From positions 1 through 38,436 of the IMG/VR virus record IMGVR_UViG_2939147180_000005: DNA of 38,436 bases; one strand, 5' to 3'. Source of the stretch: a virus. Lineage: Duplodnaviria > Heunggongvirae > Uroviricota > Caudoviricetes. This document shows, piece by piece, positions 9,326 through 26,294 of the stretch (position 1 is the stretch's first letter; every line of letters begins with the position of its first letter). The notes beneath the pieces were generated by a model. It made no database searches. It was not told the origin of the DNA and saw only the letters and a list, made by a program, of their open reading frames with translations. The position numbers and the translations under genes are program-made.

Positions 9326-10636
9326 TTAAATCCGAAGTGATGTGACTCTTCCGGTCGGTTTGACAATAGGGAATTGCTTAACGATGAAATAACCTCCGGC
9401 ATCATTCGGGTGATCATTGCCAGATTTTTTATCAGGCTCCCCCTTCTCATCCCAGACCTGTTGCTCCAGAGATTCGGCATATAACGGGCAACGCTTCACA
9501 TTAACTTTATAGCGACGCTCACCATTGGCATTGCAGAACATTGCATTCATTGAGTTAACGCGATCTTTTACTGGCGGGTTCGAGCTGTTCACCACAACGT
9601 TAAAACCAGCCTGCTTAAGCTGGGCTATATCCGTCGTACTTGCGTTACTTGATTTTCTGGAATCCCCGGAAGCATCTGGATAAATATAAATTTCCCTCAC
9701 TTTCCGGTAATCATTCCCATCATACAGCCAGAAGCGTTCTTTAATGATGCGGATCATATCCGGCGTATCGTAGGCATTGATGATTTCAGTTACCGCACAT
9801 GGAAGCCCCAAACGCAGCACATGGACGATTCCCGCCATCTTTCCAACGTTAAAATCCATCCCAATATAAATCGACTCCCCTGGCTGCTCCACTTCTTCGC
9901 AATTATTCAGTTTCCGGTCAAACTGATGGTAAACAGTACCACTTGTCAGGTTAGTAAACTGTCCTCGCAGATAGGCTTTAATCAGCTCTGGAGGGTATGA
10001 TTCAAGAAGCGAAGGAATGTAATCTGCTGGCAGGTTCTTTTCATTATCGAAAGTAGATGCCTGCACCAGACCATACAGTGAGGCCAGCTCTGTTTTTTCA
10101 CGCACGGCTTTAACAAACTGCTCGTAGACAAATTTGAATCCTTCCGGCGTGGTTGTAACGTCAATACCGTTGCGAAGTCCATCAATCTTATAACGCATAC
10201 GCGCAATTATCTTGCGCCACGCCGTTCTGGCTTTTTCCTTCGGCAAAATGTCCAGTTCATCCACCAACGCATTACCAATTTTGAAACCGACGATCGTTTG
10301 TGGCTTCTCCATCGATCTGCAGATAGTGGTTCCCCGATACTGGCGTCCGTAATAAAAGTGAACCTCTTTATTTCCCTCATTAATTTTTACGTTCAATCCC
10401 CAGTCAGCAGCAACTTCTTCCACTGTAGGGTAAAAAATATCGCGAATTTGGGGATACGTTGGCGCAAAATATCCCTGATTTATACCTGGATGCTCCCAAA
10501 TCCCCTTGCATATGCCGCCACACCCAACCCATGTTTTGCCCGAGCCAAAACCAGCAATATAGGCTTTAAATTTATGGGGCATTGAAAGAAATCGCGCCTG
10601 AGGCACATTAAGCGTCGGAGAGATCATCTTCATCAC
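9326..10636 (-). CDS. Terminase large subunit
   Basis: 436-aa ORF with N-terminal Walker A (…YIAGFGSGKTWVG…) and a C-terminal acidic nuclease-like region. Confidence 0.8.
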   Translation of the reverse strand: MMKMISPTLNVPQARFLSMPHKFKAYIAGFGSGKTWVGCGGICKGIWEHPGINQGYFAPTYPQIRDIFYPTVEEVAADWGLNVKINEGNKEVHFYYGRQYRGTTICRSMEKPQTIVGFKIGNALVDELDILPKEKARTAWRKIIARMRYKIDGLRNGIDVTTTPEGFKFVYEQFVKAVREKTELASLYGLVQASTFDNEKNLPADYIPSLLESYPPELIKAYLRGQFTNLTSGTVYHQFDRKLNNCEEVEQPGESIYIGMDFNVGKMAGIVHVLRLGLPCAVTEIINAYDTPDMIRIIKERFWLYDGNDYRKVREIYIYPDASGDSRKSSNASTTDIAQLKQAGFNVVVNSSNPPVKDRVNSMNAMFCNANGERRYKVNVKRCPLYAESLEQQVWDEKGEPDKKSGNDHPNDAGGYFIVKQFPIVKPTGRVTSLRI

Positions 10637-11702
10637 TCCTTACTCTGGCATCAACCACATTAATATTGATCGCCACAGGCTGGGGATGTTCATTATCTTC
10701 CACCGTTTCGATCTCTTTGCGCAGCTTCTGGTTTTCCATTCTGCGCCGTTCAATTTCCAGTTCCTGTAGCCGCTTATCTGCACATAAAGCCCCACCAGCA
10801 GCAAGCAAACGCAACAATTCACGCCGGGCGGCAGCCTTATCCTCCAGCAGGATCTCAACACCAAATTTTCCGAGCTTTGCCCCTGCATATAATTGCCGCG
10901 CTTCCCCATCAAGCAGAGTGGTATCAGCCATATAAAGCTGCCCCGTTCCCTCACCGCAGCACTTCGGGCAGTCCGGATTGGGTATGGCGTTATCAACAAA
11001 GCCAAGGCCACCATATTCCGGCTCGGGTTTGCCATCTCTGGAGGCCTGCGCCGCTGCCTTATCGAATTCTGCTATATCGCGCCACTGGTAGTGATGATTC
11101 TCGCCCCAGCAATAACGGCAGTTAACACGGCGAAATTGTGCCAACTGATTGGGGTCGGCCTGGACAATGGCCATCAACTGACTCACCAGTAAATCCAGGT
11201 CTGCGGTATAGCGTTTCTGGTACTGATTGCGGAAGTAGCTGATAGCACGAAAAACCTTAGGATTTCTTAGGAGCTGGCTGGCGGTTACGTAGGCCGCATT
11301 CCCCTCTGACTCGTATCCTGCCAGGCGATATGCCTCAACGAGTTTTTTCCCCTGGGCAACCAGCATTGCGAATTTCGCCTGCTGGTCAGAAACGCCGAAT
11401 TCATCGGGACAGAACGAAATTTCTTCCGCATCGCCCTCATTCAGGTACGCATCGGATACTGGCTTTTTTTCCTGAGATTTTCCGTTCCGCTTTTGTGCAG
11501 TCTGCGCAGATTTTTTCTGCGCACTTTTTTGCGCAGTTTTGCGCATTTCTGTCTGCGCATTTTTCGGAGGTTTTTTGATGTAACGACGGGCTGTTGCGTA
11601 ATTCAGTCCCCTTGCTTCACACCATGCCACCGGAGATATACCGGAGCGGGTGTATTCAGCAATATACTCCTGCTGCAACGCCCCCCAGTCCGGTCTGCTC
11701 AT
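10608..11702 (-). CDS. Putative terminase small subunit / DNA-packaging protein
   Basis: 364-aa ORF directly upstream of TerL: N-terminal HTH-like segment, basic AQK-repeat linker, C-terminal Cys cluster (CRYC…CPKCC). Confidence 0.5.
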   Translation of the reverse strand: MSRPDWGALQQEYIAEYTRSGISPVAWCEARGLNYATARRYIKKPPKNAQTEMRKTAQKSAQKKSAQTAQKRNGKSQEKKPVSDAYLNEGDAEEISFCPDEFGVSDQQAKFAMLVAQGKKLVEAYRLAGYESEGNAAYVTASQLLRNPKVFRAISYFRNQYQKRYTADLDLLVSQLMAIVQADPNQLAQFRRVNCRYCWGENHHYQWRDIAEFDKAAAQASRDGKPEPEYGGLGFVDNAIPNPDCPKCCGEGTGQLYMADTTLLDGEARQLYAGAKLGKFGVEILLEDKAAARRELLRLLAAGGALCADKRLQELEIERRRMENQKLRKEIETVEDNEHPQPVAININVVDARVRSDEDDLSDA

Positions 11703-11705
11703 CAG

Positions 11706-11957
11706 TTAGTCCTGATTTTTATCCACCCTGAGTAGTTCGCGCAGGGCAAAGGCATCCCCTTTTCTGGCAAGCTTAAACAATGCCGCCCGTAGCTCGGCTT
11801 CACCTTTCGCTCTGCCCTTACGGATGGACGCGTAAAAATTTGTCATTGCTTCCCGATTTTCTTTCAGTCGGTTCAGATCAACATCCAGAACGTCAGCGAT
11901 TTGTTGTGCAGTCATCCGGCACGCTGCCAGAGACTCGACTTTCGAATACGGAATCAT
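11706..11957 (-). CDS. Hypothetical small protein (possible DNA-binding); start may be the internal Met at 11915
   Basis: 83-aa ORF between the GT-like gene and TerS. Confidence 0.35.
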   Translation of the reverse strand: MIPYSKVESLAACRMTAQQIADVLDVDLNRLKENREAMTNFYASIRKGRAKGEAELRAALFKLARKGDAFALRELLRVDKNQD

Positions 11958-12825
11958 TTGTCACCCCCATTAATATGCAGGGTGTCTTCTTCCTGTATTT
12001 TTCGTGAAGGATTTTTACTGCAGCGTTGTTCCAGGTGACCTGATGGTGAATGCGTTTATGGCTGGCGCCCATCAGTGAGATTTTTACGCACGACGGCGCA
12101 TACATGACGGAATAAAAACTTTTAACGTAGGTCCCGGAATCCAGATACAGCTCGGTCATTCCGCCGCTGTTTTTCTGCGTCTGTTTCTGCCCTAACTGGA
12201 CAGCACCGATCGTCATAAACAATTCACCACGGCGACCGAGATTCGTGTACGTATTCACATCCTCGTTAATGCGCCCCATGAATGAGAACGGTCGATCAAC
12301 CGAACAGATAAAGCTGTTCATTGCCTTGCGTTTCACCCACGAAGCATGGCCGCCATTGTCACCAAGAAAATCCCCGCCCTGCGACATAGCGATGGAAAGC
12401 GCGGGTATTGATTCGTAATACGCCAGCATTTCAGAAAGGATCGCATCCAGTTTCCTTATCGGGAAATAGGCCTGGTCATAGTTGCGATCCACCCGAAACT
12501 GGAACTCGTGATAATCATCATCGAGCTGAATGAAGTATTTACACCCGACCAGTTTTGCCAGGTCGAAACAGGCATTACGGGCGTAAAAAATTGAGCGGTG
12601 GTCACCAAAATTATCGGCTTCGTCAAAACGACTGGCAATATCGGCTTTGGAAAATACCAGCACCTGTTCACCAAATTCAGCCATGTACTGATGCCGTGTC
12701 TTATCTTCATCATCAACAACGATAAAAATTTTCCCGGTATAGCCAGCACGACGCAACGTCCGGTAAGTCAGAACTTTGTCCGGTCGCCCGTGAGTCAGAA
12801 TAAAGGCGCAAAAATCATCACACAT
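11893..12825 (-). CDS. DxD-motif protein, possible GT-A-like nucleotide-sugar transferase
   Basis: …KIFIVVDDEDKT… and …KYFIQLDDDYHEF… resemble GT-A nucleotide-binding and DxD motifs; start overlaps the ParB-like gene stop by 8 nt. Confidence 0.4.
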   Translation of the reverse strand: MCDDFCAFILTHGRPDKVLTYRTLRRAGYTGKIFIVVDDEDKTRHQYMAEFGEQVLVFSKADIASRFDEADNFGDHRSIFYARNACFDLAKLVGCKYFIQLDDDYHEFQFRVDRNYDQAYFPIRKLDAILSEMLAYYESIPALSIAMSQGGDFLGDNGGHASWVKRKAMNSFICSVDRPFSFMGRINEDVNTYTNLGRRGELFMTIGAVQLGQKQTQKNSGGMTELYLDSGTYVKSFYSVMYAPSCVKISLMGASHKRIHHQVTWNNAAVKILHEKYRKKTPCILMGVTNDSVFESRVSGSVPDDCTTNR

Positions 12826-13606
12826 ATTCCTCCTCCCCGCTATGCATGATCGCCACCATGCGCTGCGTCATTCGGACAAATCCATTTTCAATAGCCTGCT
12901 GATAATCAATGATCACCAGCGCCGACTCCTCGAAAAGGCACTGAATTTCAGCGGGGGCATGAGCGTAATAGTCCGCAATTCTGCTGAAATTAAACACCGT
13001 GTGACGTTCTGCCGCACACAGGAGGAATTTCTCAATATCAGGATCAAGGGACGCCGAACGTATCCGGCTGATCAGCTCCTGAGTTTTCGTATCGTCATAC
13101 AGTTCACTGATATCCGGTTTACCGCCCGACGGCTCATAAACAGGCGTATCAATTTTCGTCGTATACGGCTCCTCCTTATTTCCTGTACCGGGCAAAACAT
13201 CCGTCAACAGTTCATCAATTTCTGTCGGGCCGAAGCCTGTCAGGGAGACATCAAAATCAGCATTGATTAGGTCCGACAGCTCCATCCGCAACAGATCTTC
13301 ATCCCAGCCAGCATTCATCGGTAGGCGATTATCTGCCAGGCGGTACGCCTTTTTCTGCTCATCCGTCAGGCCAGACAGAACAATGACCGGAACAGAATCC
13401 ATTTTGAGCATTTCAGCCGCCATAACACGACCGTGACCCGCAATAATTTCGCCCTTTTCGTCAATCAGCACCGGATTAGTCCAGCCGAATTGCTTAATAC
13501 TTTCTACCAGTTGTGCCACCTGCTCAGTACTGTGCGTCCTGGCGTTGTGCGCATACGGTGACAATTCTTGTAATGGGCGATAGACTATCTTTAATTTCTC
13601 GCTCAT
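12818..13606 (-). CDS. ParB-like nuclease domain protein
   Basis: N-terminal ParB/sulfiredoxin signature …FGWTNPVLIDEKGEIIAGHGRVMAA…; 262 aa with acidic C-terminal half. Confidence 0.7.
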   Translation of the reverse strand: MSEKLKIVYRPLQELSPYAHNARTHSTEQVAQLVESIKQFGWTNPVLIDEKGEIIAGHGRVMAAEMLKMDSVPVIVLSGLTDEQKKAYRLADNRLPMNAGWDEDLLRMELSDLINADFDVSLTGFGPTEIDELLTDVLPGTGNKEEPYTTKIDTPVYEPSGGKPDISELYDDTKTQELISRIRSASLDPDIEKFLLCAAERHTVFNFSRIADYYAHAPAEIQCLFEESALVIIDYQQAIENGFVRMTQRMVAIMHSGEEEYV

Positions 13607-13635
13607 ACAGCCTTGCTTTATGAATAAAACGCACC

Positions 13636-13672
13636 CCAGCAGCCAGTGCTACTGGGGCGGAGGTGTTGCTGG
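13636..13672 (-). terminator. Candidate intrinsic terminator downstream of trkG
   Basis: CCCCAG…CTGGGG hairpin followed on the minus strand by TGCGTTTTATTCAT. Confidence 0.35.
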
Positions 13673-13742: not shown

Positions 13743-15200
13743 TTAGGAGCGCCAAAAAAAACCTGAAAACAATATAATAACAGGATAAATTTCAAGGCGA
13801 CCAAGAATCATAGCTATGCACATTAAATATTTTGCAATGTCATTAAGCACTCCGAATGACGATGCAGTAGCCCCAAAACCTAATCCCATATTATTAATAC
13901 ATGCAGCCACTGTTGCAAATGATGTAAGAAAATCATATCCCATACCATTTAACACCAGTATAAAAAACACCGTGAAGAGAGTATAAAGAAAAAAGAAACT
14001 CCATACAGACCTCATTACACGATCTGTAACTATCTTCCCTCCTACATTTACACTCAACAACGCTCTGGGATGAGAAAGCTGATTTATCTCGTGTTTGCTT
14101 TGTTTGAAAAGTATAAGAAATCGAAGTGACTTAATTCCACCACAAGTTGAACCTATACATCCCCCAAAGAAACTTGACGACAGCAAAAACACTATCGTGT
14201 GCGTGGGCCAGTTTGCATAATCCTGCGTAGCTAAACCATTATCAGTGAGCATGGAGCTGGCAAGAAAAAACGAATGAATAAAACTTCCATGCAAGTCATA
14301 CATACCTATATGCCAGACCTGGAAAGAGGTAACAATGATCACCCCTAAGGCTATTAACAGAAAGAAACGAAGTTCAATATCTCTGATTAAAGGTTTTATC
14401 GTTTTCCTGCTAATAACAATATACCAAAGAGTGAAGTTGAAAGCCGATAGCAGGGAAAAAGAACCAGCCACCAGCTCAACCAAATAGTTATTAAAATATC
14501 CGATACTCTCGCTATGAGTTGAGAAACCACCAAGCGAAACTGTGGAAATCCCGTGACAAATAGCATCAAACAAAGGCATTCCTGCAAGTCTATAACAGAC
14601 AATACAAGCAATACCTAATAAAGAATAAGTTATCCACAGTGTCCGTGACGTATCGGCCAGGCGGGGAGTGAGTTTGTCATCCTTAAATGGCCCCGGCATT
14701 TCTGACTGATAAAGCTTTGCACCACCAATACCCAATAATGGCAATACAGCAACCGCCAGAACAATAACTCCTAAACCACCTATAAAATTTAACTGTGACC
14801 GATAGTACAAATATGCCCGAGGTAATGAACTAACATCATCAATTACAGTTGCTCCTGTTGTTGTTATTCCAGAAACCCCTTCAAACAGAGCATCAATGAA
14901 CGTTAAATTAAGTTCTGAGTCAATCCATAAAGGGAATGCACTAATAACAGAAAACAAAATCCAAAACATTACAATTATAATAAACCCATCACGGGTACGT
15001 AATTGAATGCCAGATTTCTTAGTTGTATACCACGCTCCGCCACCAATGCAAAAAAACATAACGAAAGTTATAAAGAAAACGAACAGGCTTTTTTCTTTAT
15101 AAAACAATGCTACAACCATTGGTGGCAACATTGAAAGACTATAGAGCCAAACCAGAAACCCACACATATGAGTAACAACTCTTACATGAGATGTATTCAT
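13743..15200 (-). CDS. trkG: TrkG, Trk-system K+ uptake protein (prophage moron)
   Basis: Translation from MNTSHVRVVTHMCGFLVWLYSL… matches remembered Rac TrkG; multi-pass membrane protein; AT-rich codon usage. Confidence 0.9.
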   Translation of the reverse strand: MNTSHVRVVTHMCGFLVWLYSLSMLPPMVVALFYKEKSLFVFFITFVMFFCIGGGAWYTTKKSGIQLRTRDGFIIIVMFWILFSVISAFPLWIDSELNLTFIDALFEGVSGITTTGATVIDDVSSLPRAYLYYRSQLNFIGGLGVIVLAVAVLPLLGIGGAKLYQSEMPGPFKDDKLTPRLADTSRTLWITYSLLGIACIVCYRLAGMPLFDAICHGISTVSLGGFSTHSESIGYFNNYLVELVAGSFSLLSAFNFTLWYIVISRKTIKPLIRDIELRFFLLIALGVIIVTSFQVWHIGMYDLHGSFIHSFFLASSMLTDNGLATQDYANWPTHTIVFLLSSSFFGGCIGSTCGGIKSLRFLILFKQSKHEINQLSHPRALLSVNVGGKIVTDRVMRSVWSFFFLYTLFTVFFILVLNGMGYDFLTSFATVAACINNMGLGFGATASSFGVLNDIAKYLMCIAMILGRLEIYPVIILFSGFFWRS

Positions 15201-15337
15201 ATCTAAATATTCTTTCAATTATAACCACCTTGCTGCAATATTATGATTATACTGTATAAAATTTAACTCCTCTTAGATCTTACTTCACTGTTCCTTATGA
15301 AACAATCATCAAAATGAATCATATTGTAGTTAAGATT

Positions 15338-17197: not shown

Positions 17198-17272
<75 letters not shown>

Positions 17273-17275
17273 ATA

Positions 17276-17351
<76 letters not shown>

Positions 17352-17684: not shown

Positions 17685-18227
17685 TCAAGCTATTTTTTGA
17701 GCAAATGATTCTCGCATGGGAATATACAGGGCATATTCAGCAACGGCTAACCAATTAGCAATTCGCTTTTCGCATGTGCTAAAACACCACTCAGGATGTG
17801 CATCATTCAGCAATTCAGCCATTTTACGCTTAGTCATCCCCCTCCCTTCATATCGTTGCCGGAGGATACAAATCAATCCTGGGTGTTTTGCCAGCACCTC
17901 ACTTATGACTCTATCAATACATAACGCCTCTGCATCAGTACAATGCGCCAGCCAGGTCTTTTGCTTGCCATTGATCATCTCTCGCAAAAACGCTTCCAGC
18001 TCAGGTTTCTCTATTCCCGCTTTTTTCATCCTGCGCAGGGCTTCATTGACGGCTGTTTTCGTCAATTTTTTGGATGCCAGCAACTGGTTAAACATATTTC
18101 CCGTCTTACCGCCGCCAATATACGACCAGCGCCCCCACATGCGCAGTTTTCCCTGAATCCAGACACTTTCCAGCGTGGTGAGACGAAGGTGTTCCCCGCT
18201 TTTGCCTGTATTTGTTGGGTAAATCAT
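17685..18227 (-). CDS. Putative late-gene antiterminator (Q-like)
   Basis: Start re-set to MIYPTNTGKSGEH… (AGGAAGG RBS); position between nin-like genes and the tRNA/lysis region is as for lambdoid Q; family not verified. Confidence 0.45.
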   Translation of the reverse strand: MIYPTNTGKSGEHLRLTTLESVWIQGKLRMWGRWSYIGGGKTGNMFNQLLASKKLTKTAVNEALRRMKKAGIEKPELEAFLREMINGKQKTWLAHCTDAEALCIDRVISEVLAKHPGLICILRQRYEGRGMTKRKMAELLNDAHPEWCFSTCEKRIANWLAVAEYALYIPMRESFAQKIA

Positions 18228-18514
18228 AAATAACCTTCCTTTCTCCAGATTTCTTGTGTGCGAAAAACACCTTCTGCATGCATCAGGCGTAATTCTTCTT
18301 TGGTGTAATCGCTGGTTTTTACCCGCCCGTCGATTAAATCGTGGCATGAGCTATAGGCAATCGCTGCCTGCATATCGTGTGGTTTTGTCGCTGTTCCGCA
18401 CGTCCCCGCCAGCCTGTAATGCGCCAGCACAGAGGTTTCGGGATTGTGATTGCAGTAGCCAGGGATTCTGATCTGGCACATCTGGCCTTTAGCCGCTTTA
18501 CGTAAATCCACCAT
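18224..18514 (-). CDS. YbcO-like protein (DUF1364, putative nuclease)
   Basis: MVDLRKAAKGQMCQIRIPGYCNHNPETSVLAHYRLAGTCGT… resembles remembered DLP12 YbcO with conserved Cys/His. Confidence 0.7.
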   Translation of the reverse strand: MVDLRKAAKGQMCQIRIPGYCNHNPETSVLAHYRLAGTCGTATKPHDMQAAIAYSSCHDLIDGRVKTSDYTKEELRLMHAEGVFRTQEIWRKEGYL

Positions 18515-20444: not shown

Positions 20445-23006
20445 TTAATATTTGAATCTTTTGTTTGGTATGATTTTCAGTTTTTTTGCTAAAGCCGTTA
20501 ACTTTCTTAAGCGCCACTTAAGGGTGGACTCAGTTAATCCTTCCCCTGCAATACCTTTAAAAATTTCATAACAAGGCTGACCAGCGTGTATTGCTTTCCA
20601 GAAATCCTCATAGCCGTCATCAAGTATTTGAGCTGTAAGTGCCTCATTAAGCTCTTCAATATTAGATACTGCTAAGTGCCCATCGACTAAAACACCAGCA
20701 TTATTTAAATCAGATTTTGCTTTAAGCGCTTCTTTTCCAGTAGGCTCTTTACCGTTCAGTATCAAGCTGGTAACTTCAATCATTTTAGCGTGAGATGTTA
20801 CAGGGAAGAAAAGCCCTTTATTTCCTGCCCTTAAGCCCGAAATTTTCTTAAGATTTCCTAACTCAGCTGTTGCATCATTATGCGACACATCTGAGGCAAT
20901 AATGCGACCTTCCCCATCAATTTCTATAATTTTTAGGGCAAGTAACCATGACTTTAAAATCGTAGAGTATAATCCCCATGTTTTCTCTGATGCCTCAATA
21001 AAAGGATAAGACTCAGAAAAATACGTGGGTATATCGCTCTCGAAAACTTTTTCTCCAGAAAGAATTTTTTTAAGTAAAGTCTCGACGAGTTGATTGTCTA
21101 AAATTTTTCGGCGTAGATAACCAGCAAGGGTTCCTTGAGAATATATATCCCTAACATTGGTTGGAATTATCCATTCACCACTTTTAACTGCATCAAGCAA
21201 GTCTAAATTCCGCAATTCCTTAACGAGATTAAATGCGTAACCTTCCCTTACATTTAGGTTTTCCGTTATTTTTGTAATTGTCAGCTTTCTCATTGTTATC
21301 AGTTTATGAAACTGGGATATAACAGAGCTTGGATACATTCTATAAATAACCAGCAGTCTAAATTCAGGAAGCTTTTGGTAGACAAGATATTCTTTGAAAA
21401 CATCGTTATAAGTATCATAGGTAGAACCACTCAAGCGTACCAATCTGTAAGCTGTTAACTTATCGAGGACTTTTACAAGCATTGGGTCTTCGTCAAATTG
21501 GTATTGAAGCTCATTGAAATCTGCTGGTAGCTTAGCTGCAATCTTAACTAGATAATCTTTTTCAATCTCATCCAAACCTTCAAGCTCTTCTTCAAAAAGG
21601 TCGTTCAGTTTTAAGCCCGCACTGATTAAATCCCTCTGAGAGTCACCTTTTCGAGTGAGTTTTAAAACATGAGCTATCGTTCTCTTTAAAAGCCAAGGAA
21701 AACCCTGCGCAAATTCAATAATATAGGGTAGTATTTCTTTACTGAGAATATTAGAGTTATTTTCATTTATTTTTTCTAAAAGAAGTATTGATTCTTTGTT
21801 TTCAAAATCCGGAAGAGTAAAGCTTTTCGATAGCTGATTAATTCTATTAAGAGAAACTTTACTGTTGTCATAGGTTGTTAGCTGATCATTTTTACGCGCA
21901 AACACTATGTATACACCACCACGAAGCTTTGTTATTGAGTTCGCAATGTATTCATAGCAATCGAAAATGTCAGGATTCGAGAATGTAGATTCAAATTGGT
22001 CAACAAAGAAAACTGCCTTTTGGCCATTTAGTGAAAGTTGCAAGTCTTTCAGTTGTTCATCAAGTTCTATAAAATTAGTCGCAATAATGCTGCTTTGGGT
22101 AAACCTCTGAACAAGATAAAAAACATCATATATTGTTTTTACATCCCTTGAGTCATGTAATTCAGTAATAACCCCATCCATTGAGAGCTTGTTTTCTAAA
22201 AAGGATACAAGAGAGCTTTTTCCTACTCCAGAGCGACTTTTTATCTGAAGAACATGTGGTAGCTCATTATGTTTGATGTGAGAAAGAAGTTCACCTATGA
22301 ATTCAGTCCTGCCAACGAACACAGTTGGCCCTGCAGGTAGCCTATAGTCAGCCCATTCAGTCCCAACAGTTAATCCTCGAACTATTTCACGCTTTACTTG
22401 AGGCATTTCGTCAACTATTTTTTTCTTGCTAGGCATAATGAAATCCAAACCAGCAAGTTCTGAAATCCCTATTTTTAAATTTTCCAAAAATCTTTCATCA
22501 TCAATTTGGCTGCCACTTTTATTGAATACCACAAAATTTGATGGCGTTCCTGAATTTACCTCTTTTAAAATAAATAACTTATACAACCCCGTATCAGTCT
22601 TGAGAATGTTTGGGGCCACAAGGTCATAACCTTTAATTTCCTTATGTAGAGATGTTTCAGTCGGCAAATGCAAAGTCGCAGTTATTTGGTTATAAAGTTC
22701 CTTTCCTACCTTTGTCGTTAACCCCATATTTTCGACAGTTCGAAAATAATCTTCCGCCTCCGGTGTTAATGGTGATAATGACAGAAATAATCCATGCACC
22801 TTTTTTTCCAGAAGACCTAGCGGCAAAAGCTTTCCAACGAACGCAGCAACTGTTTGTCCACTCATGCTTTTGCTGTGTGCTTTAGCTTCGCCAATAATCT
22901 TTTGGCCAGTTGCTCTAGAGAATCCTTCAATGTCGTACTCTAAACTAGATTCTTTTTTCCTTAACTCAATGTCGTATCCAGAGCCTTCCAAGTATTCTTT
23001 TAACAA
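20445..23006 (-). CDS. Mrr-like PD-(D/E)xK nuclease fused to a STAND-type P-loop NTPase with a C-terminal helical domain; candidate antiphage defence protein
   Basis: 853-aa ORF, AT-rich. N-terminus …YDIEG…IIGEAKAHSK (D…ExK); P-loop HVLQIKSRSGVGKSSL; Walker B AVFFVDQFE; GxP-like AQGFPWLL; ~400-aa C-terminal region without recognised motifs. Start is TTG at 23006; no upstream ATG. Confidence 0.6.
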   Translation of the reverse strand: MLKEYLEGSGYDIELRKKESSLEYDIEGFSRATGQKIIGEAKAHSKSMSGQTVAAFVGKLLPLGLLEKKVHGLFLSLSPLTPEAEDYFRTVENMGLTTKVGKELYNQITATLHLPTETSLHKEIKGYDLVAPNILKTDTGLYKLFILKEVNSGTPSNFVVFNKSGSQIDDERFLENLKIGISELAGLDFIMPSKKKIVDEMPQVKREIVRGLTVGTEWADYRLPAGPTVFVGRTEFIGELLSHIKHNELPHVLQIKSRSGVGKSSLVSFLENKLSMDGVITELHDSRDVKTIYDVFYLVQRFTQSSIIATNFIELDEQLKDLQLSLNGQKAVFFVDQFESTFSNPDIFDCYEYIANSITKLRGGVYIVFARKNDQLTTYDNSKVSLNRINQLSKSFTLPDFENKESILLLEKINENNSNILSKEILPYIIEFAQGFPWLLKRTIAHVLKLTRKGDSQRDLISAGLKLNDLFEEELEGLDEIEKDYLVKIAAKLPADFNELQYQFDEDPMLVKVLDKLTAYRLVRLSGSTYDTYNDVFKEYLVYQKLPEFRLLVIYRMYPSSVISQFHKLITMRKLTITKITENLNVREGYAFNLVKELRNLDLLDAVKSGEWIIPTNVRDIYSQGTLAGYLRRKILDNQLVETLLKKILSGEKVFESDIPTYFSESYPFIEASEKTWGLYSTILKSWLLALKIIEIDGEGRIIASDVSHNDATAELGNLKKISGLRAGNKGLFFPVTSHAKMIEVTSLILNGKEPTGKEALKAKSDLNNAGVLVDGHLAVSNIEELNEALTAQILDDGYEDFWKAIHAGQPCYEIFKGIAGEGLTESTLKWRLRKLTALAKKLKIIPNKRFKY

Positions 23007-23350
23007 CTCTTCAAAAAGTAACCCCTTGTAATAACTAGTGTTTTTTCAGTTTGTTCAGAGTGAAAAAATAAAAACATTAAACAACTCCATGTAACTATTA
23101 TTGATGAGTTATAACGCTCATTAAATTGGTCAAACCGCACTTAAAACGTGGCTTCCCCATACTAGAAAATCTACTATAAAGAGGATTACATTGCACCTTT
23201 AAATTTTAGAGATTTATAAGTGAGACTAATAATCTCGCACTGTATAATCGCAGGGTAACACATCTTTCAAGCGCCTAGGTGCTCAGATATAAGCCAGATA
23301 TTAATATAGTGCTCACTATTCCTCGAAAGACCTAGAATGACCGCTTCCGG

Positions 23351-24556
23351 CTGTGAGTTCAATCAGTGGATGCAACGCTATCCTTAATCAAGGGGGACGT
23401 TGCCATGAAACGAAGAACTCGGATTAACTACACGCCAGAGCAGAAGGCAATTATCTGGGACAGATATAAGCAAGGTGATTCTCTCCATGATATCGCCAGA
23501 ATGTTCGACAGATATCATTCTTCCATTATGCCCACTATCCACCAGACAGGGAGCTACCGTCCTCCCGTGCGAAAACGGTACCGATTAGCGCTTTCGCTTG
23601 ATAAAAGAGAGGAGATATCCAGAGGAGTGGTAGCAAAACTCAGTATCAGGGACATCGCCGCCAAATTATCAAAAGCGCCTTCAACGATTAGCCGCGAGGT
23701 CAGGAGGCACGGAGGTGCCAAACAATACCGTGCAGCAAAAGCCGATACTGCTGCATGGGAAAATGCTCTGAGACCAAAACCTTGCAAGCTAATTGAAAGC
23801 CCACATTGTGTAAAATCATTGCAGAGAAGATGCATCAGGACTAGTCGCCGGAACAGATCGCCGGCTGGCTGAAACGCTGTTATCCGGATAATCAGGAAAT
23901 GCATGTGTCACACGAAACGATTTATAAAACGCTTTTTATACAAACCCGGGGTGCATTAAAAAAAGAACTGCAGCAATGCCTCAGAAGCGGAAGAGCGGTT
24001 CGTAGATCCAGAACATCATCGCTTAAAGGGAAAGGGTTAGGGTCAATCCCAGATACGATACCAATAAGCGAAAGGCCACCTGAAGTTGCAGACAGAGCCA
24101 TACCGTGTCACTGGGAAGGTGACCTGATCCAGTGCTCGAAAAACTCCTTTATCGTCACCCTCGTAGAACGCCATTCCCGCTTTGTTATGCTGGCAAAAAT
24201 CAGAGACAACAAGACCATAACGGTTATATCTGCACTCATCAGACAAGCCCGGGAATTACCTGTTGAGCTTTATAAAACACTAACATGGGACCGGGGCGCT
24301 GAAATGACCAGCCATACCCGGTTTACTGTAGCGACAGATATTCAGATTTATTTCTGTGATCATCAATCTCCATGGCAACGCGGCTCAAATGAAAATACAA
24401 ACAGATTACTCAGACAGTATTTTCCAAAAGGAACTGACTTATCAGTTCACACAGTGTTGCCAGACAGCTCAACGAGCGGCCAAGAAAAACGCTAGACTAC
24501 GAATCACCCGCAGAACGGTTCAATAAGTGTCTTGCGTCCATCAGTTTAACTCACAG
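23351..24556 (+). mobile_element. IS30-family insertion sequence with decayed transposase
   Basis: Imperfect terminal inverted repeats CTGTGAGTTCAATCAGTGGATGCAACGC (23351-) and CTGTGAGTTAAACTGA on the opposite strand (-24556); internal ORFs are homologous to IS30 transposase. Confidence 0.7.
23366..24495 (+). pseudogene. IS30-family transposase, disrupted by a frameshift near 23806-23810, an in-frame TAG at 23842-23844 and a C-terminal frameshift
   Basis: N-terminal HTH part (23366-23872) and DDE catalytic part (23899-24495, …HWEGDL…TWDRG…QSPWQRGSNENTN…) are in different frames; the bridging frame reads …KIIAEKMHQD*SPEQIAGWL… where IS30 has Trp. Confidence 0.75.
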
Positions 24557-24689
24557 CGAAAAGCAGAAGTTCAAAATTTTTCATAACGACTGATGAGAAC
24601 AACTCCAATTATCAAGTTTACTGGTACCTCTGCCAAGCGTACTTAGAGGTCTATGTCTAAACCACCCGCCATGCAGGTGGTTGATTTAC

Positions 24690-26294
24690 CTAATTAGGCC
24701 TTGCTTGAATCGCAGACTCTATAGCTTCTCGGAATTCCGGAGCATCACTTCTTAATCGATAATCATCAAGTGTATTGAATATTTCTAGAAGTTCTTTACG
24801 ATAATACGGCGATGCCAAATTACCTTCGCCTCTAGTTGTGAAAATTAATAATGAGTCAGCGACGTCTTTTAATTTTTTATTCCTTTTCAATCTAATGTAA
24901 CAAGACACAATTATACCAAGAATATCTTTCCTAGATTTCAAAGTGAGTTTTGAATTAGGCAAAACCAACTCCAACATAGCACCAAGTAATTTGGTAGCCT
25001 CTTTTGAAATATAATGAAGATCGAAATTTTCTGTTTCTTTATTTTCTTGAAGGATGTCCCTTTCATCTATCCATTCGCATTGTTCTGCCCAATTTATAGC
25101 GATGCTAAATAAATGACAGAGAAGGAAGTGAAAAGGTGTTTCCCATTCACCACTATATTCATTCGACTGCCTATTCATATTCTTTATGATTTTCTTTGCA
25201 AAATGTGTATAGTAATGCAGCCATAAATGATCCTGAAGCCCCTGATGAATACCTTCATGAACCATGATTTCAAACAGCGTGATCCCAGAGTAAATAGGAC
25301 ATTTATACTTCGAAACATCTGAATAAGAACCTAAAGATTTATTAAGTGTAGCAATAATTTTTTCATCTTCATCTAACCTCCAGTAGATATATTCACCGAT
25401 GTCACGGTATATTGCTAAATCAGCCGCAAACTTAGCATTGGAAAAGAAAAAATGTAATATACGATTGTTTTTCGGGATCAACAAACGATGCCCTCGACTA
25501 ACGTTAAGATTATTTTTAAGCTCAACATATAGACGACTGTTAGGTGAATCTAGTAATGCACTGATAAAATTAGAAGTAAAGTCAGAACGAACTATTGGTT
25601 CGATCTTGATTAACTCAAGGCAGAGGGATGGGTGCGCAAGTGCAAAGTGATTGGTAAGTTCAGGTGATGAGACAATATTTAATAATGCTTCATGTGCATA
25701 TTCGGCAGCAGTCTCGCGATTAGAGATGCGGAGATTGTTAGCTATCTTATCACAAAGTCGATTCTTCACCGGACTATCAATTATTGATATCAACTTTTCT
25801 AGTTGAGGTGCCAACAATTGTGCCAGATCATCGTATCGTTTAGTAAGGTGCAAATTTTCCACTAACTCTAGAAATATTCCTGTTCTTCCAACTGAAAGTT
25901 TAGGTTTTTTTAAGCGAAATAAAATGTAAATAGCAACTGCGAGTGATATCAGGTATACGGCACTTGAACTATCTAATCCCCATTTCCAGGGGCCAAAACT
26001 AAAATATAAGTCTAGTGATTTTAAAGCTGGTGCAAACACCAAATAATTGCTTAGTAAGAATGCGAAACCAACAATTGCCCAATCCCACCACGCCAGGCAG
26101 AACCTCAAACGTAGTCGAGCGTTTGGAGTAATAAGGGCCCATACGGCAGCAATAACGCCCAGTATGGTAAGTAGACTTGAAGTATCAATTTTGGTTGGCG
26201 GTGTCATAATTTCTCTTGTAATCATGGTTTGATGTACATCGGAATGGCTTAACATGATAAGGCTCTTTGTATTATAAATCAGAACATTATGCAC
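24690..26294 (-). CDS. Membrane-anchored protein of unknown function (N-terminal TM helices plus ~430-aa cytoplasmic domain)
   Basis: 534-aa AT-rich ORF; hydrophobic helices in …LLTILGVIAAVWALI… / …WAIVGFAFLLSNYLVFAPAL… / …VYLISLAVAIYILF…; start ambiguous (GTG 26294, ATG 26255, or ATG 26207 with AAGAGA RBS). Confidence 0.6.
   Translation of the reverse strand: MHNVLIYNTKSLIMLSHSDVHQTMITREIMTPPTKIDTSSLLTILGVIAAVWALITPNARLRLRFCLAWWDWAIVGFAFLLSNYLVFAPALKSLDLYFSFGPWKWGLDSSSAVYLISLAVAIYILFRLKKPKLSVGRTGIFLELVENLHLTKRYDDLAQLLAPQLEKLISIIDSPVKNRLCDKIANNLRISNRETAAEYAHEALLNIVSSPELTNHFALAHPSLCLELIKIEPIVRSDFTSNFISALLDSPNSRLYVELKNNLNVSRGHRLLIPKNNRILHFFFSNAKFAADLAIYRDIGEYIYWRLDEDEKIIATLNKSLGSYSDVSKYKCPIYSGITLFEIMVHEGIHQGLQDHLWLHYYTHFAKKIIKNMNRQSNEYSGEWETPFHFLLCHLFSIAINWAEQCEWIDERDILQENKETENFDLHYISKEATKLLGAMLELVLPNSKLTLKSRKDILGIIVSCYIRLKRNKKLKDVADSLLIFTTRGEGNLASPYYRKELLEIFNTLDDYRLRSDAPEFREAIESAIQARPN

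Follow-up and report, generated by a model that had tools for sequence, protein, structure and literature searches.

A ParB-like protein and a TAGT-family glycosyltransferase as a conserved phage gene pair in a Rac-type prophage of Escherichia coli: a possible two-subunit DNA glycosyltransferase

The window analysed here, a stretch of 38,436 nucleotides (nt) deposited as IMG/VR virus record IMGVR_UViG_2939147180_000005 (Caudoviricetes), is an intact Rac-type lambdoid prophage of Escherichia coli. Its minus strand carries two overlapping genes, of which the first (12818..13606, the full-length form of ynaK) encodes a ParB-like protein of 262 amino acids (aa), called the partner in the following, and the second (11893..12825) a 310-aa GT-A glycosyltransferase of the TAGT family (PF20691). 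In 135 of 137 loci, a homologue of the partner is found immediately upstream of the transferase gene and on the same strand; the two exceptions are truncated TAGT fragments. The account favoured here, with a confidence that stops a little short of even, is that the pair constitutes a DNA glycosyltransferase of two subunits that is expressed late and resembles the ParB-dependent thymine dioxygenases. The kinds of component involved, i.e. an enzyme of the TAGT family and a ParB-like protein that assists DNA modification, are already known; what appears to be new is a strict two-gene module without a hydroxymethylation pathway, endowed with an invariant linker motif, an adaptor domain and a ParB domain that is optional.

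The loci were collected from IMG/VR (80), from species-dereplicated genomes (53) and from several annotated phages, and the pairing is found at every one of those with a full-length transferase and sufficient upstream DNA. Homologues of both genes, 40-60% identical, occur in phages from many phyla, which sets the two genes far apart from a chance pair of open reading frames (ORFs). The hosts include Enterobacteria (Proteobacteria), Bacteroidota, Firmicutes, Veillonella, Chlorobi, Desulfovibrionaceae, Planctomycetes, Kiritimatiellae, Saccharibacteria and Actinobacteria, an uncultured archaeon and the haloarchaeal virus HHTV-2 being the archaeal carriers; the annotated phages with the pair are those of Lactobacillus, Nocardia, Porphyromonas and Haloarcula. 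In the window, the start codon of the transferase gene lies inside the end of the partner gene, the two sharing 8 nt (12818..12825, minus strand; ATGTGTGA), and a GGAGGAGG ribosome-binding site precedes it within the partner gene. Overlap and internal site make plausible the translational coupling that had been asserted in the original prediction, and related loci share the abutting or overlapping arrangement. Strict co-occurrence and the overlapping start and stop codons suggest that the enzyme may depend on its partner for activity on double-stranded DNA.

That the 310-aa ORF might be a glycosyltransferase had been proposed tentatively from the motifs IVVDDED and IQLDDDY, which are indeed present at residues 34-40 and 99-105, and the proposal is borne out. 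The protein matches PF20691 with 125.6 bits (cut-off 27.5; E 3.4e-36; residues 8-222) and phrog_842 ('beta-glucosyl-HMC-alpha-glucosyltransferase') with an E-value of 2.9e-102, has the GT-A (nucleotide-diphospho-sugar transferase) fold and is placed by structure searches within the nucleotide-sugar transferases; RefSeq names the E. coli protein 'GREB1-related'. The family comprises 1483 clusters at 50% identity (E up to 1e-3). Across 65 diverse members, conservation reaches 95% or more at 57 positions, which include R14, D38, D41, R83, D102-D103-D104, R166/K167, N187/E188/D189, T216/Q217, G221/G222, K235 and R258/H260/H261. The aspartates of the DDD motif for binding of the metal and of the nucleotide-diphosphate (NDP)-sugar (codons 102-104, 12514..12522, minus strand) are invariant in all 65 sequences, as are R14 and D189, and E188 is found in 64. 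The R...DDD...ED(Y/F) motif, defined for phage GT-A DNA glycosyltransferases and the base-J glucosyltransferase (JGT) (bioRxiv 10.1101/2023.12.21.572611), is retained with one small departure, namely a Val following ED instead of Tyr/Phe. In the AlphaFold model, the N-terminal, nucleotide-sugar-binding half is confident and the C-terminal half is poor, the loops at residues 152-168, 184-200 and 218-244 being conserved in spite of their low confidence. The core of the protein spans residues 1-285, about 20 further C-terminal residues, which overlap the next ORF, being specific to the E. coli form. Structural neighbours include SunS and glycogenin, which glycosylate peptides or proteins, all GT-A folds scoring alike in this comparison; sequence searches against solved structures and against the PADLOC defence models gave no match. 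The family is basic (median pI 8.9), so that the transferase could bind DNA itself.

The characterised TAGT-related enzymes, which for the most part act on DNA, include the beta-glucosyl-HMC-alpha-glucosyltransferase of T2/T6 (PMC13216743) and the GT-A enzymes linked to 5mYOX dioxygenases (bioRxiv 10.1101/2023.12.21.572611). The transferase resembles the PF20691 enzymes in its match above the cut-off, its fold, its R...DDD...ED motif and its phage origin, and it departs from them in that its subfamily has an extra highly conserved C-terminal region (about residues 213-265) beyond the Pfam model, it is always accompanied by the partner protein, and no counterpart was found of the hydroxymethylase, or methyltransferase plus TET enzyme, by which their acceptors are supplied. 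'Solitary' TAGTs of undefined function were reported in 288 of 753 phages (PMC13216743), and GT-A genes without a neighbouring base-modification enzyme in about 65% of contigs (bioRxiv 10.1101/2023.12.21.572611); those of the present subfamily are never truly alone, one specific partner always being present.

In its AlphaFold 2 (AF2) model, the partner begins with a ParB/Srx nucleotide-binding domain and a segment of two helices, continues with an acidic linker that is disordered and ends in a helical domain. The nucleotide-binding domain (residues 1-95) carries the expected ParB/sulfiredoxin (Srx) signature (GEIIAGHGRVMAA, residues 52-64), and the partner matches Pfam ParB_N with 29.3 bits (cut-off 26.3) and phrog_620 with an E-value of 3e-90. 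Foldseek matches, which concern the N-terminal domain only, are to Noc, ParB (E ~1e-6), PadC, KorB and Srx, i.e. to a nucleotide-binding fold, and the label 'nuclease' given to the protein at the outset has to be given up. ParB domain and helix-helix segment together occupy codons 1-135 (13202..13606, minus strand) with N21, R23, S36, G57, R60 and N93 conserved. The domain has residues of Boxes I, II and III, and of those that bind phosphate, N21 is found in 56 of 56 diverse partners, G57 in 55, N93 in 54 and R23 and R60 in 50 each. The catalytic Glu of Box II, which hydrolyses CTP in true ParB proteins, is replaced by His58 in an alignment to Noc, and His or Asn takes its place in 54 of the 56 partners. 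After the ParB domain come two to three short helices, predicted disorder from about residue 135 to 170 and the helical domain (residues 172-255).

The Pfam ParB_N match, and annotations of relatives such as 'chromosome (plasmid) partitioning protein' and 'ParB-like partition nuclease', could be taken to mean that the first gene encodes an ordinary ParB whose adjacency to the transferase is incidental, but this is scarcely credible. A helix-turn-helix (HTH) DNA-binding domain is absent from the model, the ParB sequence and Pfam matches stopping before residue 95; the LG[KR]GL-type ParA-binding motif (as described in PMC12704722) is absent from the N-terminus MSEKLKIVYRP; and no ParA gene is annotated in the near-identical prophage copy, parS sites having been left out of the search. 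A partition protein or nuclease was rejected on the lack of an HTH domain and of an annotated ParA and on the replaced Box II Glu. Furthermore, Rac is integrated in the chromosome and has no need of a partition system, adjacency to TAGT is 100%, and forms of the partner that lack the ParB domain altogether are common.

It is the linker motif, and not the ParB domain, that stands out as the most conserved feature of the partner in the 56-sequence alignment. The motif (YTTKIDTPVYEP, codons 148-159, 13130..13165, minus strand) lies within the disordered linker (pLDDT <50) and has the family consensus Y-[TS]-x-K-[IV]-x-x-P-x-Y-[ET]-P, with Y148, P155 and Y157 invariant in all 56 sequences and position 149 always Thr or Ser. 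The helical C-terminal domain that follows (codons 171-262, 12821..13096, minus strand) has invariant L195, R201, A211, Y214, E226, I232, D234 and A238. Pfam has no family for motif plus C-terminal domain, a PDB sequence search gave no credible match, and no methyltransferase domain was found by Pfam at residues 142-262. The partner is strongly acidic, its pI of 4.6 being also the family median.

Stand-alone proteins of about 130 aa made of the motif and the C-terminal domain adjoin TAGT in other phages. A profile search with this module only retrieved 2235 proteins, the top 120 of which are for the most part free-standing, 125-140 aa long and devoid of a Pfam domain. Vibrio phage pv27, which is T4-like, has upstream of TAGT a 139-aa protein that corresponds to motif and C-terminal domain only (hmmsearch 6e-56, profile positions 126-255), and one IMG/VR locus likewise has a ParB-less partner. 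At one locus, the order is a separate 123-aa ParB_N gene, the 131-aa module, TAGT and the large terminase subunit gene (TerL); at one ParB-less module locus, no gene is called in the 876 nt after the module. To judge from these sequences, the ParB domain is an optional addition to a constant module of motif and helical domain. The pv27 gene annotated as 'partition protein' was considered as a separate source of the ParB domain and discarded, being without a match to the partner profile and not ParB-like. In the same 191-kb genome (L139 5459..6888, L151 30930..32042), ParB-less partner and TAGT genes lie among primase, exonuclease and helicase genes, and a gene annotated '2-aminooxy adenylosuccinate synthetase' (PurZ-like) hints that the pv27 genome contains 2-aminoadenine.

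Two known systems place the ParB domain in the context of DNA modification. The first are the ParB-methyltransferases: partner residues 3-141 match phrog_498 ('DNA methyltransferase') with an E-value of 3.7e-51 and residues 10-141 match PADLOC MTase_II with 1e-38, so that the N-terminal module of the partner is, by sequence comparison, the ParB module fused to DNA methyltransferases in other phages. About 140 N-terminal residues are close homologues (E 1e-38 to 4e-51), and both systems are encoded by phages or prophages; however, the ParB module is there fused to the enzyme and here to the adaptor, the enzyme being separate and probably translationally coupled, and the reaction is there methylation and here sugar transfer. 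Phage fusions of the ParB fold to methyltransferases were catalogued by Kaljevic et al. (2025; PMC12704722), where the word 'glycosyltransferase' does not occur.

The second precedent is 5mYOX176 and its activator ParB176. O'Toole et al. (PNAS 2026; PMC13229309) found that a ParB-like protein is required for the action of a phage thymine dioxygenase on double-stranded DNA, and that mutation of the nucleotide-binding residues of ParB176 did not abolish activation of the dioxygenase. In both cases, a ParB-like gene stands beside a gene for a (here putative) post-replicative DNA-modifying enzyme, in clusters that often contain terminase genes. ParB176 shares with the partner the order of nucleotide-binding domain, short helical segment, disordered linker (about 35-50 aa) and C-terminal domain, the lack of a DNA-binding domain, and the residues N14/R16/S29/R56, which correspond with nearly equal spacing to N21/R23/S36/R60. 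In contrast, the enzyme is here a GT-A glycosyltransferase and not an Fe/2-oxoglutarate dioxygenase, none of which was found, and the linker of the partner bears an invariant motif, whereas that of ParB176 is partly dispensable.

The position of the pair in phage genomes is of two kinds. In temperate and cos/pac siphophages, it precedes the packaging genes: among the second and third downstream genes of 57 loci, Pfam identified Terminase_6N at 28, Terminase_3 at 14, GpA_ATPase at 3 and TerL_ATPase at 3, plus portal families, the union amounting to 28 to 48 loci because one protein may match two related terminase models. The first downstream gene mostly encodes a small helix-turn-helix protein or one resembling the small terminase subunit (TerS). 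As four terminase families are involved, the position is not the mere inheritance of one block. In Lactobacillus phage c5, the pair are the first two genes after the cos site; in Nocardia phage NTR1, TerL follows the pair directly, without annotation of a separate small subunit; the order ParB, TAGT, TerS, TerL, portal is that of phage phi jlb1 and of a Porphyromonas phage; and two metagenomic phages also show the pair ahead of packaging genes. In lytic phages, the ParB-less partner and TAGT lie within the replication module. At two loci, the DNA polymerase A gene is followed by the module, by one or two TAGT genes and by a cytidylyltransferase-like gene, and further downstream by a DNA methyltransferase and an SNF2 helicase at the first and by RecA and a UvrD-type helicase at the second, and another module locus lies among DNA methyltransferase, DnaB-type helicase and RecT genes.

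The position ahead of terminase genes of four Pfam families, the place next to the cos site in phage c5 and the direct junction with TerL in NTR1 bring to mind a DNA-packaging accessory, in which the ParB-like protein would mark or organise the cos or pac region and the transferase would modify DNA ends, terminase or portal. Indeed, ParB proteins were earlier proposed to direct modification enzymes during packaging, a proposal for which the paper of 2013 that defined the TAGT family (Iyer et al.) is cited in PMC8256090. Such a role, which had been the second suggestion of the original prediction, is retained as a minor and distinctly improbable alternative. The replication module, far from the terminase, is where the pair lies in T4-like phages of Vibrio and in several lytic phages, the partner has no DNA-binding domain, and the ParB domain is often missing entirely. 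Furthermore, the slot before the terminase commonly houses late-expressed accessory genes.

DNA modification, the first suggestion of the original prediction, remains the best supported function on grounds of context, although the hydroxymethyl-pyrimidine pathway that would provide an acceptor is absent. A DNA target is suggested by the known substrates of the family, by the module shared with methyltransferases, by the ParB176 precedent and by the packaging or replication gene settings. In the two-subunit DNA glycosyltransferase favoured here, the catalytic subunit would be the basic GT-A enzyme, which would hold the nucleotide-sugar through its DDD motif, and the partner its obligatory helper, which probably binds and activates the enzyme through its linker motif and its helical domain at the C-terminus. 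The optional ParB domain would probably contribute nucleotide-binding control or delivery to double-stranded DNA, as may be envisaged by comparison with the 5mYOX176 activator. The two genes would be transcribed with the late operon under Q antitermination, just ahead of the terminase genes, and the sugar would be attached to phage DNA after replication, during packaging, to afford protection in the next host. The acceptor would be a component of ordinary DNA, since no hydroxymethyl-pyrimidine pathway was found; to our knowledge, the chemistry of such a transfer has not been described so far. The specific form of this proposal, in which unmodified DNA is glycosylated at a base nitrogen or oxygen or at its ends by a self-sufficient system with the adaptor domain as obligatory second subunit, is put forward tentatively and is itself rather unlikely.

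Several points weigh against a DNA glycosyltransferase. The usual source of hydroxymethyl acceptors was not found in the Rac prophage, in phage c5 or in the inspected flanks, and the characterised family members all transfer the sugar to a hydroxyl group. In ordinary DNA, hydroxyl groups are present only at its ends. The partner, a strongly acidic protein, is without a DNA-binding domain, the enzyme model is of low confidence in its C-terminal half, a literature search yielded no experiments on the ParB-TAGT pair or on ynaK, and one member of the family, human GREB1, glycosylates a protein (PMC7968844).

The acceptors known for the family are 5-hydroxymethylcytosine, 5-hydroxymethyluracil or a first sugar already present on DNA (PMC13216743; bioRxiv 10.1101/2023.12.21.572611; PMC8256090). 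No TET/JBP dioxygenase, hydroxymethylase or first glucosyltransferase is annotated in the near-identical Rac copy, nor was any detected by Pfam on the larger unannotated ORFs of the window. A hydroxymethyl-pyrimidine pathway is likewise absent from the complete phage c5 genome (31.8 kb, 50 genes) and, by precomputed Pfam matches, from flanks of 8-10 kb at eight further loci. The Pfam families listed for 319 neighbouring ORFs of about 60 diverse loci do not include TET_JBP, two of the three neighbour sets giving the 25 commonest families, so that a rare single match is possible, and the annotation of 150 of the 191 kb of pv27 shows, in this regard, no more than an ordinary thymidylate synthase beside DHFR. 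A hidden hydroxymethyl-pyrimidine pathway was rejected after these checks of Rac copy, phage c5, neighbours and flanks. As no modified base is common to the hosts, the acceptor must be universal, i.e. ordinary DNA or the partner protein.

The second of these choices leads to a different function, in which the transferase would glycosylate a protein, in the simplest case its own partner, with the hydroxyls of Y148, T/S149 and Y157 of the linker motif as acceptors. Glycogenin, SunS with sublancin and EarP with EF-P would be analogous, and the glycosylated acidic ParB-like protein would act as an effector, e.g. a decoy or a packaged protein. A hydroxyl acceptor is chemically favoured and no hydroxylated base was found; the partner is the sole protein always present with TAGT, the nearby terminases and portals being of differing families; and the motif is located in a disordered acidic linker where none of the 56 sequences has Phe in place of Tyr and all have Thr or Ser at position 149. 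The presence of SunS and glycogenin among the structural neighbours is a weak indication in view of the similar scores of GT-A folds. GREB1, which has a glycosyltransferase domain of the same family, O-glycosylates protein Thr/Ser (PMC7968844); it differs in being a large eukaryotic protein that O-GlcNAcylates the oestrogen receptor and has no ParB partner, and its relevance here is confined to the proof that proteins can be substrates of the family. However, a protein target leaves unexplained the ParB module common with DNA methyltransferases and the replication-module position beside DNA methyltransferase genes, an invariant motif would equally be expected of a docking peptide, and a glycoprotein of this kind has no known function. 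Glycosylation of the partner or of another protein is, on balance, unlikely.

With regard to the DNA glycosyltransferase that is preferred here, TAGT genes occur in tandem after one ParB gene in some relatives, and nucleotidyltransferase or sugar-nucleotide enzyme genes neighbour some loci. Transferase relatives are also found fused to a C-terminal SAM-dependent methyltransferase, a sulfotransferase, a second TAGT-like domain or an N-terminal P-loop kinase-like or methyltransferase-like domain (P0250, P0254, P0273, P0288, P0258, P0272, P0264, P0286, P0296 and P0267). Tandem copies and tailoring-enzyme neighbours are features of DNA hypermodification clusters too, and these features, taken together, are signs that a glycan is really produced, the fused forms suggesting that the transferred sugar is tailored further.

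Sugar modifications of phage DNA decide the outcome of restriction, CRISPR and glycosylase-based defences. The pair, seen together with the ParB-like activators of phage DNA dioxygenases, suggests that post-replicative DNA modification makes general use of ParB-type helpers, and its presence in the Rac prophage of E. coli strains, e.g. ATCC 8739 (99.7% identity over the region), makes the question of the solitary TAGTs experimentally tractable. If ordinary DNA were the target, a new modification chemistry would be present in about one-sixth of complete E. coli genomes and in thousands of bacterial and archaeal phages; if the partner were the target, the pair would represent a phage protein-glycosylation system absent from the literature searched.

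The 2.3-kb region around the pair is 100% identical to several E. coli chromosomes and is present in 1618 of 5426 complete genomes, in 866 of which at least 80% of the region is found. The annotated identical chromosomal copy contains recE, racC, kilR, sieB, ydaT/U/V, hokD, essD, rrrD, trkG and ynaK, followed by terminase, portal, capsid and tail genes. All late genes of the window are on the minus strand, and the lysis cassette and trkG (13743..15218), a low-GC insert (0.40) between the lysis genes and the partner gene, come before the pair. The pair can be assigned to the late operon from a Q-type antiterminator-like gene (17685..18347, minus strand; DUF1133 2.9e-108 and Phage_antitermQ) that lies upstream of the lysis cassette. 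A strong terminator-like hairpin after trkG (13632..13659, minus strand; 12-bp stem with 8 GC pairs, then a T-run) lies about 25 nt ahead of the partner start codon, so that expression of the pair probably depends on antiterminated late transcription reading through it. An internal promoter driving the pair in the lysogen was rejected, promoter-like sites (9 observed, 11.5 expected) being no commoner than in shuffled sequence.

This setting bears on another role for the transferase, namely alteration of a host surface glycan (lipopolysaccharide or teichoic acid) in lysogenic conversion or superinfection exclusion, as is known for prophage TarP. However, the genes are part of a late operon behind a terminator, outside the regions that are expressed in the lysogen, carriers of the pair include phage c5, for which no integrase is annotated, T4-like phages and an archaeal virus, and a cytoplasmic ParB-like partner would be without a role. 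On operon position and on the T4-like, archaeal and integrase-less carriers, cell-surface glycosylation was rejected as most improbable.

The pair does lie between trkG and TerS, as had been described, except that an 83-aa ORF (11706..11957, minus strand) intervenes before TerS. It shares the last 65 nt of the transferase gene, resembles the HTH part of a small terminase subunit (phrog_309 2.5e-22) and has counterparts of about 85 aa that follow TAGT in enterobacterial loci, its phmmer relatives being 78 ORFs of the collected loci; it is regarded as genomic context of the pair, beside the 364-aa TerS. TerS (10608..11702, minus strand) and TerL (9326..10636, minus strand), the packaging genes downstream of the pair, match Terminase_2, Terminase_6N and Terminase_6C.

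In the RefSeq annotation of the identical copy (L001 21219..22007), the partner gene is given as 'ynaK, pseudogene, missing C-terminus' along with a separate 155-aa hypothetical protein. As the 262-aa frame is open, this split is an annotation artefact, caused presumably by the truncated copy of ynaK in the K-12 reference. In some E. coli strains, IS3-family elements disrupt the small terminase gene or the ParB-like gene (L001 18100..19313), from which it follows that many Rac copies are decaying; the copy in the window is intact.

Some genomes of the collection have further genes of interest. A metagenomic phage with the order ParB, TAGT, terminase has four consecutive family-2 glycosyltransferase genes two genes past the capsid gene (L143 17837..20316), possibly a separate cluster for virion glycosylation. 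On a lytic contig with a ParB-less partner and TAGT (L154 12632..16363), a radical-SAM enzyme and a protein with the N-terminal domain of dGTP diphosphohydrolase are encoded nearby, which hints at a second base-replacement pathway in that genome.

Elsewhere in the window, phage-borne tRNA-Gly(tcc) and tRNA-Thr(tgt) genes lie between the Q-like gene and the lysis cassette (17198..17351). A low-GC island (0.35-0.43; 20445..26294) within the prophage contains a gene for an 853-aa nSTAND1 NTPase whose N-terminal part weakly matches an Mrr-like nuclease (20445..23006, minus strand), IS30-family transposase fragments (23366..24495, plus strand) and a 534-aa ORF without a Pfam or PADLOC match (24690..26294, minus strand), and looks like a defence-type insert.

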